Positions 21,001-45,000 of a DNA stretch of 56,387 nt are shown here, one piece after another; the stretch's first letter is position 1, and every line of letters begins with the position of its first letter. This DNA comes from Bacteroidales bacterium (GTDB lineage: Bacteria; Bacteroidota; Bacteroidia; Bacteroidales; CAIWKO01), in contig DAOORA010000023.1 of assembly GCA_035389045.1 (NCBI GenBank), positions 1-56,387 on the forward strand, in the 5' to 3' direction. The position numbers are program-made.

Positions 21001-24000
21001 ATCTTCCCATCGACAGCCATGTCATCGGCGAAGTGCTTCATGAAGTTTTTGCCAATGATGAAAAGGACAGGATGAATGTTTCGGTAGTATCGGCCGGTAC
21101 TGCTGCCGATCATTCGCTTATCGGATGCCTGAATTTCACCTTCTTCGACATGAAACGCAAGGTGGTGCGTCTGAAACAAGCCGGCAGAGGCGGTCTGGGT
21201 ACCGTGTTGCGTGATAAAAAAATCAAGGCCGTGGTGGCTAAAGTCCCCGGTGTAAAAGGCAACCTGAACAATGTTGTTGACCTGGATGCGATCATGGAAC
21301 GCGGAAAACGCTTCAACAAGGAAATGCGTGAACTTGACGATTCACAGTGCCAGATGCGCAAGATAGGAACGGCACACCTGACGCACATCATGAATGATTA
21401 TGATCTGTTCCCTACCCATAATTTTAAATACGGAAGTCATCCTGATGCCATAAAAGTTCATGCTGAACGCTACAAGGAACGTTTTACACAGAATATGCCC
21501 GACGGATGCTGGATCGGCTGCAACATGTCGTGCGCCAAAGGTGTGGATAATTACGAACTGAGAACCGGCCCTTATAAAGGGTCTAAGGTGATTGTTGACG
21601 GGCCTGAATATGAAACTGCGGCATCTCTGGGTTCCTGTGCAGGAATTTTCAACCCGGATTTCACTATTGAAGCCAATTTTTATTGTGACACCTATGGTAT
21701 ATGTACCATTACCTGGGGAACTATCCTGGGATTTGTAATGGAGTGTTATGAAAACGGTATCCTTAACGAAGAGCGCACCGGCGGACTGAAACTCAACTTC
21801 GGCAATGAAGACAGCGCAATGGAACTGCTTCATCAGCTTGCCCGTGGAGAAGGTTTTGGCGTTATTGCCGGACAGGGTGTTCATGTGATGAAAGAAATAT
21901 TTGTTTCAAAAGGCTGGGGCGACCCGGGCTTCCTGCAGGATATAGGAATGGAGAACAAAGGCCTTGAGTATTCTCAATATGTCTCCAAAGAATCGCTGGC
22001 ACAGCAGGGCGGTTATGCCATGACCAACAAAGGCCCTCAGCACGACGAAGCCTGGCTGATCTTCATGGACATGGTGAACAACCAGATCCCGACCTTTGAG
22101 AACAAAGCCGAAGCACTGTATTATTTTCCTATGTTCCGTACCTGGTTTGGCCTGCAGGGCTTATGCAAACTCCCCTGGAATGATGTGGAACCCGCTGACA
22201 ATCACGAACAGTCAGAACCGGCCAAAGTACCCGAACATGTTGACAATTATGTTACGATTTACAAAGCCGTCACCGGACTCGAGCTGGACAAAGATTCACT
22301 GATCATCCAATCAGAACGCGTCTATCAGTTCCAGCGTGTTTTCAATATCCGTTGCGGAAAAGGCTTGCGCAGGCACGATGCCCAGCCATACCGCGCCTGC
22401 GGCCCGGTGACCATCGAAGAATATGAATCCCGCCAGGAACGTTACGACAAACAGATGAAAGAAAAAATCGGCATCGACCCGGAAGGAAAATCCACTGAAG
22501 AAAAAATCGACATAACACGTAAATACAGGGAAGAACAATACGAAAAACTGCTCGACGCTGTTTACAAACGCCGCGGATGGACGCCCAACGGAGTGCCTAC
22601 TATTGAACGGCTCAAATCGTTGGGTATGGATCTGCCGGAAGTGCTTGAAATTGTGACACCCCTGCAATAACTACAATTTACATATAACATCGGCAGGCAA
22701 GAACCTCCCTGCACATAAACAACACCAAAACCCTAATGGATTTTGCCTGAACACAATGGCATTTTCTGACAGGGGCTATTAAGGATTATTTCTGAAACTG
22801 CCCGGGGTTGACAACATATCATTGTTTTACTAAGAAGACATAATACAAATTTTACAGCCGGAGCTGATCTCGGAAACCTATTTTGAAACCATTGACCCCG
22901 CCGTCATCGGAAAATCTCAGTCCCAAAAGGCTCTATATCAAATATTGTGTTCCTCTTATCAGCATAATACGTTTTTATCTAAATTTGTGAAAACATTTGC
23001 AGTAGTTATTTTATGGCACAAAAGCCCCTTAATAAAAAGAAAGCAGCCCCAAAAAATCAAAAAAAGCAGGGACCCCGTATTGATAATAGCATGGAAAAAA
23101 TACCGTCATGGGCTATTTATGCGGTGTTGGTTTTTACTTTTTTAATTTATATAAGGGCTCTTTTCAACGGCTTTGCCAGTTACGATGACGACATGTATAT
23201 TTTGGATAATCCATACATCCGTAGTTTTTCCCGGGAGGGTATCCAGCATATTTTTTCCTCTTTTTATTTTGATATTTATCACCCACTGACGACCCTCACC
23301 TATTTATTTGAATACAAACTTTTTGGGACAAATCCATTGCCTTACCACCTGTTGAATATTCTGCTTCATTTGCTCAATACATGGCTTGTTTATCATGTGA
23401 CGCTGAAACTGAGTACGAATAAAATTACATCATTGCTTGTTTCTGTTTTATTTGCCGTACATCCTATGCATGTCGAAAGTGTAGCCTGGATTTCTGAAAG
23501 GAAAGATGTATTATACTCACTGTTCTATCTGTTGTCATTATTGACGTATCTGCGTTATATCGAAACCGGTTATAAGAAAAAGCATTATTCAGCCGCCCTG
23601 TTATTTTTTATTCTTTCCCTACTTTCAAAACCCACAGCAGTTACCATATTTGCGCTCCTGATTGCTATTGATATTTATAAAGGAAGAAAAGTCAGCCTGA
23701 AATCATTAGCCGATAAACTACCCTTTTTAGTTTTGTCACTGATTTTGGTGATTGTTACATTTACGAACTCAGGATCAGGTGGCAATCAATTATTGACCTA
23801 TGGATTTGCAGACAGGATTTTCCTTTTTACTTACGCCCTTTCGTTCTATATCGTGAAAGCTATCATTCCTTTCCATATGTCTGCCATCCATGGTTTTCCC
23901 GATAACTCCGGTGGTACTTTGCCAATAGTGTATTACGCATCATTACCTTTCATCCTGCTCGTTTCAGCGATTTTTATTTATATCGCGGTTCGTGCATTCC

Positions 24001-42000: not shown

Positions 42001-45000
42001 CCTGCAACGACTGGCACCAGTCCCTTGAACTGGGTTACACACCGGCAGAAAGCGTCATCCAACAGTTTTGCAGGTAAAAATAATATTAAATAATGCAACA
42101 GGTCCCCGACAAACACATGGAATTTTTGTTTATGTTTTTATGCTGAAAACTGTTTTAGAAAATATATTTGTTTAACATGTTGGAAAATAACATTTTAACA
42201 CATGGCGGGCAAGACTGAGAAAAAAACACATGTTCCATCACAGAAGAAAAGAAACCGCGGAGATACCGGAGTTCGAAAAAGTTCTTTTCAGATACCTTCC
42301 CGGGCTTTATACGCCTTACTGGTTGTAACGGCAATCATATATACCCGTGCATTATTCAATGGTTTTGCCAGCCTCGACGACGATGATTACCTCTTCAAAA
42401 ACCCTTATATCAAGGATTTCAGTTTCGATGCCATAAAATCTATATTTTCTTCTTTTTATACCGGTAATTATCACCCGCTGACCACCCTTACGTATTTGTT
42501 TGAACTCCATATTTATGGATTGAAACCATTTCCGTATCATCTGTTGAATGTATTGCTGCACCTGGCCAATGCATGGCTGGTTTATAAACTTGCTGAAAAG
42601 CTCAGCGGAACAAGGCTGACCGCACTGCTGGTGTCGGCTTTGTTCGCCCTGCACCCCATGCACGTTGAGTCGGTGGCATGGATCTCTGAACGCAAAGATG
42701 TGCTGTATACTTTTTTTTACCTGGCCTCACTGCTGGCTTACCTTGACTACCTGAAATCAGATCTTAACAAGAAACATTACATGGTCAGCCTGCTGCTTTT
42801 TTTGTTATCACTGTTATCAAAATCTGCTGCAGTCACCCTGCCTGCGCTCATGATCGCCATTGACTTTTATAAATCCAGGAAACCCGGTGTAAAAATGTTT
42901 GTTGAAAAGATACCCTTCGTGGCGCTTTCGTTGTTGTTCGGGATACTGGCCCTGTTTTCACAGCAAGGGGCTATAAAAGAAGTGTCGGCAATTTTTACTT
43001 TTTTTGAACGGATTTTTTTATTTACCTATGCTCTTGCTTTTTACCTGGTCAAAATCATCCTTCCGGTAAAGCTGTCGGCCATGCACTATTATCCGGAGAC
43101 ACACGGCGCCCCCCTGCCCTGGTATTATTATGCTTCATTGCCTTTGCTGTTGTTACTGATCTGGCTGGTGGTGAGAAAAACAGGTTTTTCACGCGAAAAG
43201 CTTTTCGGCGCTTCCTTTTTCCTCATTGTTATCTCCATCATGCTGCAGTTAATTCCTGTCGGAAATGCCATCACGGCTGAACGTTATACCTATGTATCAT
43301 ACATAGGGGTGTTTTATATTGCAGGTCAATGGTTATCGCATCTTCAAAAAGAATCCCTCCGGAAAGCCGCTCTTATAGGGTTCGGAGTCTTTTTACTGGC
43401 TATCTCTTTACTGACATGGAACCGTATCAAAGTTTGGGAAAACGGCAATACCCTTTTCACGGATATCATAAAAAAATATCCCGACAGTTATGTGGCCTGG
43501 TGGATGCGCGGGAATTACAAAAACGAACTGAAAGACTACCAGGGAGCTTTGCAGGATTATAATAAAACCCTTCAGCTATATCCTTACTTTGATCAGTGCC
43601 TGACTAACCGGGGACATATCTTAAATGAGTTAAAAGACTACAAGGCTGCCCTGCGCGATCTGGATCTTGCCATCCAGCTTGACTCTACGGTGGCAGAAAC
43701 ATTTAACAACCGCGGTATGGCCTACGACGGGCTGAGGGACACTGCAGCAGCCATGAAAGATTACAACAAAGCCATCCTGCTTAATCCCGAACTGCAGAAA
43801 GCGTACAACAACAGAGGCGTTCTGAAAGCGACCATAGGGAACCTGCAAAGTGCAATCACAGATATTAATAAGGCCATCAGCCTGAAACCCGACGACGGCG
43901 AAGCATACAGCAACCGCGCCAACATCAGGGCCATGATGAAAGATTTTAAAGGCTCCTTTGATGATTACAGCATCGCCTTACAATATAATCCCAAAGACGA
44001 TATCGTGCTGTTCAACCGGGGGCTGACACGCCTCAACCTGAATGACACCGCGGGCGCCTGTGAAGATATGAACCAATCACTCAGCTACGGAAACAAAATT
44101 GCCGGCGAAGTGATCAGCGCATTATGTAAGTAATAGTTATACCGATATAGTAGCTGTTGACTTTCAAAGTGCAAATGTACTATTTGACGTCTAATACTGG
44201 TACCTCATCGGTATAAAGAGATTTTATATAATCAGTTTTGCTAATTGTAATCATAATAAATTCCTGATTAACAAAATGTAATGAACAAAATCATTATAAC
44301 CTTACTATTCGGGTTATACTCCCTTCCGGGCACGTTCGATACATCATTACTTCTTTAGAATTTCTTTATATTCCCTGGATAAATCTTTATAAAACACTTA
44401 TAAGTTCCACAGTAATTTTGTATAGGTGTTAAATGATAAGGATATGAAAGCATCTTTTTTATTCATGATCTTGGAAACAAACAGCTCACTGGGATATTTT
44501 GCCGGTGCTGTAATCGCTGCATTAATATTTGGTTACCTGATTTACACTCTTATAAAACCAGAGAAATTTTAATCAATGTAAGTATGGAAACTCTTTTGAT
44601 TTTGACAAAGTTTTTTGGAGGTATCATCCTGTTGTTTGTGATAGGTTGGCTGATCGGTCATTTCCTGAAACTTGATAAAATATATGAAGAAACTCAAAGT
44701 GAGTTGAAATCAAAAAACCGTAAAAAATACCATGTATGATATGTTCACAATATTTGATTTTATAGAGATTTTCTTGTTTTTGGGCGTATTGATTTTTTTA
44801 ACACCCATTCTAGGAAATTACATGTATAAAGTATTTGCTGGCAAAAATCATATGATGAAACCCGTTTTGGGGTGGCTTGAAAAATTGACTTATCGTTTTA
44901 GCGGAGTAAACCCTGAGGAAGAAACGAATTGGAAAAGTTACCTCTTTAGCTTGCTGTTGTTTAATTTAATCGGTTTTGTTTTTTTATTTCTCATACAATT

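Follow-up and report, generated by a model that had tools for sequence, protein, structure and literature searches.

A tandem array of ten paralogous genes

The window analysed here is the whole 56,387-nucleotide stretch of contig DAOORA010000023.1 from an uncultured Bacteroidales bacterium of sludge and digester communities (genome G000, the genome under study). Its ORF listing places ten consecutive head-to-tail genes of 641-680 aa on the plus strand within positions 23013-44133, separated by gaps of 30-396 bp. We call them a1 to a10 in order: a1 (23013..24962, 649 aa), a2 (25288..27228, 646 aa), a3 (27364..29295, 643 aa), a4 (29326..31368, 680 aa), a5 (31474..33411, 645 aa), a6 (33620..35557), a7 (35711..37636, 641 aa), a8 (37785..39716, 643 aa), a9 (40113..42077) and a10 (42202..44133, 643 aa). 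All ten are GT-C-TPR paralogues, and a profile of their N-terminal domain matches each protein at E-values from 7e-191 (a1) to 2e-210, which makes a chance likeness untenable. The survey's finding of a ten-gene head-to-tail array with about 48-60% identity thus holds, pairwise identities running from 47.6 to 60.5% (mean 55.0%). The most divergent member is a1 (47.6-52.4% identity to the other nine), and a4, only 30 bp downstream of a3, carries one additional 34-residue TPR, seen as a 34-column insertion unique to it in the ten-protein alignment. Two listed starts are TTG codons that are likely displaced: a6 overhangs the common Met of the alignment by 2 residues and a9 by 12, and the profile matches begin at ATG codons at 33626 and 40149, the likely true starts.

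Two genes outside the system serve as synteny anchors, both on the plus strand: an aldehyde:ferredoxin oxidoreductase gene upstream (20517..22670; Pfam AFOR_N and AFOR_C) and kdpA downstream (44732..46435; Pfam KdpA). Most array genes appear from the sequence to have their own promoter. A motif search finds TAnnTTTG, which we take to be the Bacteroidetes promoter motif, 33-45 nt ahead of the likely start of six of the ten genes, against a plus-strand rate of 0.585 per kb over the whole window. These plus-strand copies lie 33 nt before a1 (22980..22987) and a3 (27331..27338), 41 nt before a5 (31433..31440), 38 nt before the likely start of a6 (33588..33595), 45 nt before that of a9 (40104..40111) and 39 nt before a10 (42163..42170). 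Independent samples contain the array as well: exact short contigs from two DNA runs of other studies cover 28 of its 30 bins. In two metatranscriptome libraries, exact contigs of 151-299 nt fall within several array genes, which hints only weakly at transcription; contaminating DNA could also be the source of these contigs.

Predicted fold and family assignment

A model of residues 1-400 of a7, built from a 129-row alignment, reached a pLDDT of 94.6 and a pTM of 0.91. When it was compared with 48,161 chains by VIA-align, the top 20 rows were all GT-C enzymes, among them Pmt4 (Z 20.7), Pmt1/2 (20.6), STT3B (19.1), AglB (18.3), ArnT (18.2) and the arabinosyltransferases AftA, AftB, AftD and EmbA, and the next row dropped to Z 6.1; in Foldseek, rows 1-42 were likewise all GT-C. 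The predicted fold of the N-terminal 400 residues bears out the architecture that the survey had proposed, a GT-C domain followed by C-terminal TPRs.

By sequence, the N-domain profile found no match among solved structures (the best was a phage protein at E 0.68), so the family assignment rests on the predicted fold, conserved motifs and Pfam PMT_2. That domain passes its cut-off in one of the ten array proteins scanned whole and in two when the search is confined to the first 400 aa (a1, 33.6 bits; a7, 36-37.5 bits in the two scans), and hmmscan of the N-domains gave no PMT_2 match in eight of the ten. In a six-frame search of the genome 26 places pass, 19 of them in the 42 paralogues described below and six in the array; scores in this search are modest, at 25.6-40.5 bits (a3, 36.9; a5, 33.1; a8, 35; a2, at 25.6, slightly below the cut-off of 26.1). 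The Pfam PMT model does not reach its cut-off of 22.7 bits (best score 19.5), and Pfam scans of the array proteins reported no MIR domain. On our reading, each of the ten genes most probably encodes an inner-membrane GT-C glycosyltransferase of the PMT/TMTC/ArnT branch.

The fungal enzymes Pmt1/2 and Pmt4 (GT39) align with the a7 model over 315 residues at Z 20.6-20.7 and an rmsd of 3.9-4.0, with only 11-12% identity. They likewise have an acidic motif in loop 1, but in the array proteins TPRs take the place of the acceptor-side domain.

Conserved residues, topology and the TPR domain

The acidic pair D58-D59, in the first outer loop, and K205 are kept in all 42 paralogues and R359 in 41 of them, at overall identities of 20-60%; D58, D59, H150, E155, K205 and R359 are invariant across the ten array proteins. 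The order of helices in the model and the K/R-rich consensus segments (residues 1-30, 221-234, 321-330 and 378-385) fit 11 TM helices with the TPRs outside, a topology that we infer for the whole array. An invariant Cys pair at the C-terminal end, C626/C648, fits an oxidising compartment.

Eukaryotic TMTC1-4 are protein O-mannosyltransferases of the GT-C/PMT clan (PMC7801869) and, as described there, share this layout, their polytopic GT-C domain lying N-terminal to TPRs that face away from the cytoplasm. Going by the motif list in Table 4 of that paper, the ten proteins have M1 (DD, loop 1), M7 (ERxxY, loop 5) in all ten and M3 (RxD, loop 2) in nine; they keep the Lys and Thr of M4, and they contain an FA-x-HP-x-H segment similar to one quoted there for TMTC3. 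These motifs and the predicted 11-TM topology uphold the likeness to TMTC that had been noted before. Unlike in TMTC as tabulated there, Ser or Pro replaces the metal-binding Glu of M4, and the ten-protein alignment shows no M5 (DW); M6 (PxxP) occurs in only two of the ten. The TMTC-defining Pfam domain, TMTC_DUF1736, is detected in none of the ten genes at E <= 1; elsewhere in the genome it turns up in just four paralogues, all more distantly related, and is above cut-off in two of these (C41 and C47). Set against TMTC, too, the array proteins carry six TPRs, the genome has 42 copies versus four human paralogues, and the donor would be undecaprenyl-linked versus dolichyl-linked.

The TPR domain, with six repeats per protein and seven in a4, has its best natural matches in the TPRs of O-GlcNAc transferase (E 8e-41), and Asn occupies repeat position 6 in 34 of the 40 cells of repeats 3-6. 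Mean identity is lower in the TPR domains than in the N-domains (51.3% versus 57.3%), and variability is highest on the concave face (1.85 bits, compared with 0.70 for structural positions and 1.31 for the rest), which is normal for any exposed surface and so is no proof of diversified binding.

A second close parallel is TfpW of P. aeruginosa, a pilin D-arabinofuranosyl transferase required for pilin glycosylation (bioRxiv 10.1101/2020.04.19.049825). By its published description it resembles the array proteins in size (646 aa versus 641-680 aa), in a cytoplasmic N-terminus, 11 predicted TM helices and a DDx motif in a periplasmic loop, and in C-terminal periplasmic TPRs whose best structural match is also O-GlcNAc transferase. 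The same description makes tfpW a single gene directly downstream of its acceptor gene pilA, unlike the ten-gene array, which has no flanking pilin or other evident acceptor gene.

Copy number and origin of the array

Applied to 5110 six-frame ORFs (100 aa or longer), the N-domain profile, from which TPR columns are absent, picks out 42 full-length paralogues of 604-864 aa at E <= 1.6e-15, in line with the earlier estimate of about 40, and a TPR profile matches all 42. Together they comprise some 28,300 codons, which by arithmetic from ORF lengths is roughly 1.9% of the 4.46 Mb genome. Two further arrays reported by the survey were recovered by the same profile: six genes on the minus strand at C11:38562-51462 and four on the plus strand at C5:7701-16106.

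The family is already known, huge and widespread in bacteria, with 100,031 clusters in public data. JGI annotation calls relatives "protein O-mannosyl-transferase". The G000 set is nonetheless unusually large, and it is the largest among the roughly 240 Bacteroidales genomes searched: first-look candidates numbered 58 and 70 in G000, and 33 and 49 in the next-highest genomes of two samples of 200 other Bacteroidales genomes each. The survey had stated that relatives hold far fewer copies; G000 does lead, but the baseline is higher than claimed, with 7-31 profile matches per genome in 17 same-genus genomes and 6-15 in same-family genomes, compared with at least 45 in G000.

How old is the array? 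It had been described as a recent, species-level amplification, and the data speak against this: no array pair exceeds 60.5% identity, a10 has orthologues in five congeners, and a sixth congener, G009, has an array of its own. At the same locus between the oxidoreductase and kdp genes, G016, G010, G008, G002 and G001 each carry a gene 68-73% identical to a10, the only copy in the retrieved locus DNA; the other nine array genes are at most 64% identical to these a10-like genes. Synteny is marked by 91-94% identical oxidoreductase copies adjoining the a10-like or array genes in G009, G016, G007, G010 and G008, and by a 90% identical kdpA downstream of the a10-like gene in G001. In G009 the locus holds five genes, the last of them 70% identical to a10, and the best partners are a10 (70%), a9 (71%; L001:8543-10465) and a7 (67% and 63%, two genes). 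Because orthologues of a10 occur across the genus, a10 is probably the founder; because G009 has orthologues of a7, a9 and a10, at least part of the array is older than the split of these species. The array probably grew by tandem duplication from the genus-conserved a10, partly before G000 and G009 separated; the gene tree behind this picture comes from a fast search, with SH-aLRT values as its sole branch support. Given the rapid divergence of this family, the copies are old when judged by sequence.

Gene neighbourhood and candidate donor-route genes

Most of the 67 neighbouring proteins scanned are housekeeping products of unrelated function, with no consistently adjacent partner gene among them, and no glycan-synthesis or donor-pathway genes flank the array. 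Elsewhere in the genome, on C64, a GtrA-family gene lies beside a GT2 gene that most closely matches PgfS (193.6 bits) and ArnC (130.3 bits), and a pair of paralogues at C11:63565-67975 adjoins a GT2 gene resembling polyprenyl-phosphate-sugar synthases (PpgS, 83.7 bits; ArnC, 72.1), all of these scores being under the families' own cut-offs. A GT9 heptosyltransferase-like gene and a GT8 gene, too, stand beside C11 paralogues.

In the Pgf system of Streptococcus mutans, as in ArnC/ArnT and GtrA/GtrB/GtrC, a GT2 enzyme charges undecaprenyl phosphate with a sugar, a small flippase carries the product across the membrane and the sugar is then transferred outside the cytoplasm by a GT-C enzyme; such modules are usually encoded together. 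G000 resembles them in having a PgfS/ArnC-like GT2 gene adjoining a GtrA-family gene, but differs in that the pair is off-contig and scores far under the equivalog cut-offs. The GT2 and GtrA genes are unlinked to the array, and genes of their kind also function in modifying LPS or polysaccharides.

The survey had further connected the family with type IX secretion (T9SS) cargo. The best 150 of 302 first-look cargo candidates all score above the Por_Secre_tail cut-off, which makes its figure of 267 cargo proteins plausible. The link itself finds no support in gene neighbourhoods: Por_Secre_tail is present at E <= 1e-10 in only one of the 67 neighbouring proteins scanned, and the 19 other paralogue loci have at least six cargo tails within about 5 kb, roughly the expectation from genome-wide density.

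Proposed mechanism and alternatives

We propose that each array protein has a lysine-rich cytoplasmic N-terminus followed by eleven membrane helices, with the catalytic pair D58-D59 in the first periplasmic loop, and then six periplasmic TPRs (seven in a4) ending in the Cys pair. A cytoplasmic GT2 enzyme would place a single sugar on undecaprenyl phosphate, a GtrA-type protein would flip the loaded lipid to the periplasmic face, and the GT-C domain would pass the sugar to a periplasmic acceptor. The periplasmic TPR domain probably selects the targets of the enzyme, which are most likely extended segments of secreted or envelope proteins. On this view the 42 paralogues would be a set of enzymes that share one chemistry but differ in acceptor range or in regulation. 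We are highly confident that the array encodes active GT-C glycosyltransferases whose TPRs are periplasmic, and we lean slightly towards the mechanism as a whole, protein acceptor included; whether the acceptors are proteins is, taken alone, about evenly balanced.

The enzymes might instead decorate glycans or glycolipids (lipid A or LPS core, capsule, exopolysaccharide or peptidoglycan-linked polymers), the TPR domain docking them onto envelope assembly machines. ArnT, GtrC-type enzymes and the mycobacterial arabinosyltransferases provide precedent, and ArnT, AftA, AftB, AftD and EmbA all rank in the top 20 of the fold comparison; the GT9, GT8 and polyprenyl-phosphate-sugar-synthase-like GT2 genes beside C11 paralogues point the same way, as does life in sludge and digester communities, habitats in which exopolymers are important. 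We nevertheless consider glycan acceptors rather unlikely, given that the nearest folds are the protein O-mannosyltransferases Pmt4 and Pmt1/2, that the ten array genes lack glycan-synthesis neighbours, that the TPRs are nearest those of the peptide-binding O-GlcNAc transferase and carry Asn at repeat position 6, and that both characterised systems of this exact architecture, TMTC and TfpW, modify proteins according to the descriptions cited above.

With protein acceptors, the family could even supply a missing step in general Bacteroidota O-glycosylation, the copies serving different substrate classes: according to a 2025 review (PMC12871550), that glycan has mannose at its reducing end, the transferase is undiscovered, and homologues of eukaryotic O-mannosylation enzymes should be sought. 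The proteins are PMT/TMTC-like by fold and motifs, and the JGI label on their relatives agrees. We judge a role as initiating O-mannosyltransferase improbable, however, for the system is widespread in the phylum by the review's account, whereas the family went undetected in 92 of 201 Bacteroidales genomes at least 95% complete (broad 24-row profile, E <= 1e-5) or in 93 of 201 with the array profile, and PMT_2 had no match in the Bacteroides thetaiotaomicron control genome. The accepted model in the same review is moreover transfer of a preassembled core glycan, not a single mannose.

Could the proteins be no enzymes at all, but membrane-anchored TPR scaffolds or chaperones for which the GT-C-like domain is a mere anchor? 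PMT_2 is weak or absent in several copies, the metal-binding Glu of M4 (as listed in PMC7801869) is missing and no donor-pathway gene is linked to the array. Active transferases remain by far the better reading and a scaffold role very improbable, since the acidic pair, the Lys and, with one exception, the Arg persist through all 42 divergent paralogues, the N-domain is better conserved than the TPR domain, and eight columns are invariant over the 129-row alignment of distant relatives.

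Results

The ten head-to-tail genes a1 to a10 (window 23013-44133) are consecutive plus-strand ORFs encoding proteins of 641-680 aa, with intergenic gaps of 30-396 bp, and their combination of a GT-C glycosyltransferase domain with C-terminal TPRs, as well as the enzyme class that this implies, is well supported. They can be aligned end to end at 47.6-60.5% pairwise identity (mean 55.0%), the first 400 residues being on average more similar (57.3%) than the C-terminal 240 (51.3%). One additional 34-residue repeat is present in a4, and the listed starts of a6 and a9 are probably too early, the common N-terminus beginning at the ATG codons at 33626 and 40149, respectively. 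Genes unrelated to the array flank it on both sides, rho and that for aldehyde:ferredoxin oxidoreductase (AFOR) upstream and kdpABC and kdpDE downstream. Could such an array be an assembly artefact or a collapsed repeat? We rejected this reading because the copies are only 48-60% identical and because exact short contigs from two DNA runs of other studies, one on an anaerobic digester and one on activated sludge, cover 28 of 30 array bins; the joints from 35906 to 41327 (run X3) and from 42699 back to 32062 (run X2), like the uncovered bins, rest on single low-depth contigs. Closest partners differ by domain in the array alignment A1, with a6 and a7 sharing 54.7% identity in the N-domain and 61.5% in the TPRs and a3 and a7 62.7% and 53.7%, a mismatch that may reflect recombination among array members or a swapping of their domains.

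Pfam TPR families match all ten array proteins, and the PMT_2 model (PF13231; gathering cut-off 26.1 bits) is passed by six of the ten genes in a six-frame search, by two when hmmscan is given the first 400 aa and by one when it is given whole proteins; across the 42 full-length paralogues of the genome, 19 exceed the cut-off in the six-frame search. An NCBIfam scan of the ten returned sub-threshold TPR families only, none of them informative. Against the PDB, a whole-protein profile found TPR proteins only, which says nothing about the enzyme part, and a profile of the N-domain found no solved structure, its best match, a phage maturation protein at E 0.68, being taken as chance. An initial model of whole a1 from a 10-row alignment (pLDDT 73.8) gave a Foldseek result swamped by TPR matches and was replaced by a model of a7 residues 1-400, built on a 129-sequence alignment of distant relatives from an exhaustive profile search (pLDDT 94.6, pTM 0.91). 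In a VIA-align comparison of this model with 48,161 chains, the best 20 rows are all GT-C enzymes at Z 10.6-20.7, led by Pmt4 (20.7), Pmt1/2 (20.6), STT3B (19.1), AglB (18.3) and ArnT (18.2), and the next row falls to Z 6.1; in Foldseek against the PDB, rows 1-42 are likewise all GT-C. The modelled N-domain has the polytopic membrane fold of the GT-C superfamily.

The residues expected of a working enzyme appear to have been kept. An acidic pair directly after the first transmembrane helix (D58-D59) is invariant in the array and present in all 42 paralogues, as is K205, and R359, also invariant in the array, is retained in 41 of the 42; because some pairs of these paralogues are only about 20% identical, this conservation argues for active enzymes. 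Helix order in the model, read together with Lys/Arg-rich consensus segments, suggests a cytoplasmic N-terminus followed by 11 membrane helices, a long first outer loop that would carry the acidic pair, and a fourth outer loop containing a hydrophobic helix that probably does not span the membrane. The acidic motif (DD, DxD or DE) typical of the first extracytoplasmic loop of GT-C enzymes is present, with the predicted topology placing it in the periplasm. Model helices, K/R-rich loops and a terminal cysteine pair would put the TPR domain outside as well; this pair, C626 and C648, is invariant near the C-terminus of the array proteins and fits an oxidising compartment.

How many such enzymes does the genome encode? 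We counted with a profile of the N-terminal domains only, because TPR similarity would otherwise inflate the number, and searched the 5110 six-frame ORFs with a length of 100 aa or more (135 contigs, 4.46 Mb). It matches 42 ORFs, all of 604-864 aa and all at E <= 1.6e-15, and every one of them also matches a TPR profile. The survey's finding of about 40 paralogues is thus borne out, as are, by the ORF list and this profile, its ten-gene array and the further arrays of six genes at C11:38562-51462 and four at C5:7701-16106. Smaller groups comprise three paralogues on C51, a tandem pair on C35, an adjacent, divergently oriented pair on C33 and a second group, a pair, on C11, and C20, C31 and C46 each carry two separate paralogues. 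Another nine PMT_2-type GT-C membrane proteins, of 468-730 aa, come without TPRs (C63:11080-12639, C4:82439-83845, C19:14437-16401, C64:19046-20653, C13:69092-70984, C27:14773-16965, C9:64100-66193, C3:52599-54464 and C9:68098-69702), which brings such enzymes to about 51.

Among characterized proteins, the animal TMTC O-mannosyltransferases offer a close comparison in architecture, a GT-C domain with 11 transmembrane helices followed by non-cytoplasmic TPRs; the array proteins share it by their predicted topology, which is the one worked out for human TMTCs in PMC7801869. Table 4 of that paper defines seven TMTC motifs, M1-M7. All ten array genes have M1 (DD) and M7 (ERxxY), nine have M3 (RxD) and two have M6 (PxxP), whereas M5 (DW) was seen in none; M2 (SHKSYRP) is reduced to Y-(H/Q/F)-P, and in M4 (KE(T/Q)xxT) the Lys and Thr are kept but the metal-binding Glu is replaced by Ser or Pro. 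A segment similar to the HP-x-H region of TMTC3, as given in that paper, also occurs in the array genes, and K205 and R359 are the counterparts of residues that its account of TMTC models describes as contacting phosphate. TMTC_DUF1736, the defining Pfam domain of TMTCs, was not detected in the array: a six-frame genome search at E <= 1 gave five matches, none in the array, and hmmscan at E <= 10 found none there either. Four more distant paralogues match it (C41:12805-14967, C47:22940-24952, C31:26420-28546 and C104:1670-3664), over the cut-off in those on C41 and C47, and these four, together with a paralogue on C40, have the YRP form of M2. The array genes resemble animal TMTCs less than these four do; the one on C104 starts 11 bp downstream of a gene for a type IX secretion (T9SS) cargo protein. 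The Pfam PMT (GT39) model reaches at best 19.5 bits in the array, below its cut-off of 22.7, and Pfam scans of the array proteins found no MIR domains. We therefore describe the array genes as apparently sharing the architecture of TMTCs and part of their active site, and do not assign them to the TMTC family in the strict sense.

The bacterial protein TfpW, as described in bioRxiv 10.1101/2020.04.19.049825, also has the arrangement predicted for the array proteins. Its gene, however, lies directly downstream of that for its pilin acceptor, and the array genes are not so placed: no pilin gene was seen directly upstream of the array, which lies between Rho/AFOR and kdpABC-DE.

The TPR domain comprises six repeats in exact 34-residue register. 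Positions 7 (Arg) and 23 (Asp) are nearly invariant in each repeat, and position 6 is Asn in 34 of the 40 cells of repeats 3-6. Variability is highest at the positions that we take to line the concave groove (1.85 bits), lowest at structural positions (0.70) and intermediate elsewhere (1.31). This pattern is consistent with a peptide-binding groove that has diversified among paralogues, and the TPRs could serve as the specificity element. Among natural sequences they are matched best by the O-GlcNAc transferase TPRs, which the TfpW authors name as the best match for theirs too (bioRxiv 10.1101/2020.04.19.049825).

The genome stands at the far end of a broad distribution. GT-C-TPR fusions are very common in bacteria. 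In public data clustered at 50% identity, the N-domain profile matches 100,031 clusters, and 23,732 of these reach E <= 1e-30; for close relatives, NCBI uses the name "tetratricopeptide repeat protein" and JGI "protein O-mannosyl-transferase", and the nearest records with a name come from uncultured Bacteroidales MAGs. At E <= 1e-10, the source genome has at least 45 matches, each of 17 genomes of the same genus has 7-31, five genomes of the same family have 6-15, and 18 from other families of the order have 0-14, seven of these having none. Of 200 further near-complete Bacteroidales genomes in each of two samples, 107 and 108 carry the family (108 and 109 of 201 with the source genome included), and the source genome has the most first-look candidates, 58 against the next 33 and 70 against the next 49. 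Because nine candidates per genome were scored in these two samples, match counts there are lower bounds, and the first-look numbers serve as a rough proxy from which we draw no statistics.

The array locus itself records a longer history. Between AFOR and kdp, five congeners (G016, G010, G008, G002 and G001) have one copy in the DNA examined, some contigs ending near the gene, and this copy matches a10 at 68-73% identity and no other array gene at more than 64%. A sixth, G009, has five genes there, whose best partners are a10 (70%), a9 (71%) and a7 (67% and 63%), plus one divergent gene at 36%, and their order in the locus is that of their array partners. The divergent gene, the middle one of the five (G009:C4, locus L001, 10511-12454, minus strand), is 34-36% identical to any window gene, has a very long tree branch and may belong to another subfamily and have been inserted here. 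The AFOR proteins of these congeners are 91-94% identical to that of the window, and the GT-C-TPR family evolves much faster than this neighbour. Reading a quick tree together with the BLAST identity table, we consider a10 the probable founder of the array, and at least three array lineages predate the split from G009. No duplication in the array looks recent, because its closest pair of paralogues (60.5%) is more diverged than orthologues are across species.

The survey had proposed a recent, species-level amplification against relatives with far fewer copies. The second half of that statement stands insofar as this genome has the largest set among those searched, although the baseline is already 7-31 in the genus and 6-15 in the family. 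The first does not agree with a best paralogue pair at 60.5%, with a10 orthologues at 68-73% in five congeners or with a five-gene array in G009: the genome marks the extreme of an expansion at lineage level and does not represent a recent burst within the species.

Most array genes may have their own promoter. TAnnTTTG, a promoter motif of Bacteroidetes, occurs 33-45 nt ahead of the likely start in six of the ten, whereas its rate on the plus strand of the window (0.585/kb) predicts about 0.3 occurrences in ten 50-nt windows, which suggests separate promoters. Scans for sigma-70 promoters (57 sites, 53.3 expected) and intrinsic terminators (18 sites, 19.5 expected) stayed at shuffle level, and such generic scans are expected to be uninformative in Bacteroidales. 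Exact contigs of 151-299 nt from two activated-sludge metatranscriptome libraries lie inside several array genes, a weak hint of transcription only, since DNA carry-over is possible. Contigs from outside runs X2 (DNA), X4 and X8 (both RNA) break at 39732, just past the a8 stop (window 39717-40112), and upstream of the break share one sequence that is unlike the window; this common break may reflect other populations with a different gene or junction before a9, and array make-up that varies between strains.

Where would the donor sugar come from? On C64 (locus L035, 1435-2928), a GtrA-family membrane protein of 148 aa directly adjoins a GT2 of 311 aa that is matched best by PgfS and ArnC. Next to the C11 paralogue pair, a GT9 gene is accompanied by another GT2, one that resembles synthases of polyprenyl-phosphate sugars; every one of these scores falls well short of the equivalog cut-offs. 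We regard the C64 pair as a candidate module that would synthesize an undecaprenyl-phosphate sugar and flip it. These candidate genes and the correspondence of K205 and R359 would fit a polyprenyl-phosphate-linked donor for the array enzymes, the acceptors of which are putatively proteins. A TPR-only protein is encoded just upstream of the C64 pair, and this contig also carries a TPR-less PMT_2 GT-C at a distance of about 14 kb.

The neighbourhoods of the other paralogues point to no common partner. Among 67 proteins flanking 19 other paralogue loci, no partner recurs, the neighbours being mixed housekeeping genes. The survey's suggested link to T9SS cargo fares poorly in the same test: only one of the 67 has a Por_Secre_tail at E <= 1e-10, and the six cargo tails within about 5 kb of the 19 loci are close to background density, with about 6-13 expected by an estimate from 150-302 tails in 4.46 Mb.

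Discussion

The array is a new, extreme case of an enzyme kind that is known and widespread but experimentally almost untouched. Our literature search on the GT-C-TPR fusion and the Bacteroidota transferase turned up no experimental work on the Bacteroidota members of the family, and TfpW as the only bacterial example of the architecture. A 2025 review (PMC12871550) states that Bacteroidota O-glycans begin with mannose, that the transferase is undiscovered, and that homologues of eukaryotic O-mannosylation are recommended search targets. The GT-C-TPR family is such a homologue. Because a broad profile (E <= 1e-5) did not find it in 92 of 201 Bacteroidales genomes at least 95% complete, a role as the universal Bacteroidota enzyme is unlikely, although lineages that have the family might use it to glycosylate proteins.

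Why keep 42 versions of one enzyme? So many divergent copies that still have their catalytic residues imply that what diversified was the choice of acceptor and not the chemistry. In the most far-reaching interpretation, the 42 proteins would be acceptor-specific protein O-glycosyltransferases (possibly O-mannosyltransferases), each using its TPR groove to recognise proteins of a different class, secreted or periplasmic, and would also add the first mannose to O-glycoproteins in the lineages that carry them, a proposal for which we would give long odds. If true, it would be a bacterial counterpart, tenfold larger, of the domain-specific O-mannosylation by animal TMTC1-4 and TMEM260. The family bears on the question, raised in PMC12871550, of which enzyme starts the mannose-linked O-glycans of Bacteroidota. 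If the enzymes modify envelope glycans instead, the expansion points to surface variation in sludge Bacteroidales. The genome also offers a natural test bed for the steering of membrane glycosyltransferases by TPRs. O-glycosylated TPR proteins of Prevotella intermedia, tabulated in Supplementary Table S3 of PMC10897501, might bear on whether such proteins are in turn glycosylated.

Other features of the window and genome

Rho (window 18444-20366) has 640 aa, with about 220 residues separating its N-terminal domain (6-47) from its RNA-binding domain (276-349), and its orthologues in congeners are 79-83% identical over their full length, compared with 91-94% for the adjoining AFOR. Two Peptidase_S46 genes (dipeptidyl-peptidase type) lie at window 12933-15149 and on C40 (locus L027, 2637-4928), one of them directly upstream of the C40 GT-C-TPR paralogue. 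A 957-aa ORF at 3277-6150 (minus strand) matches no Pfam family at E <= 1e-5 and is adjoined by a 194-aa ORF (2380-2964) with a partial match to an IS200-like Y1 transposase.
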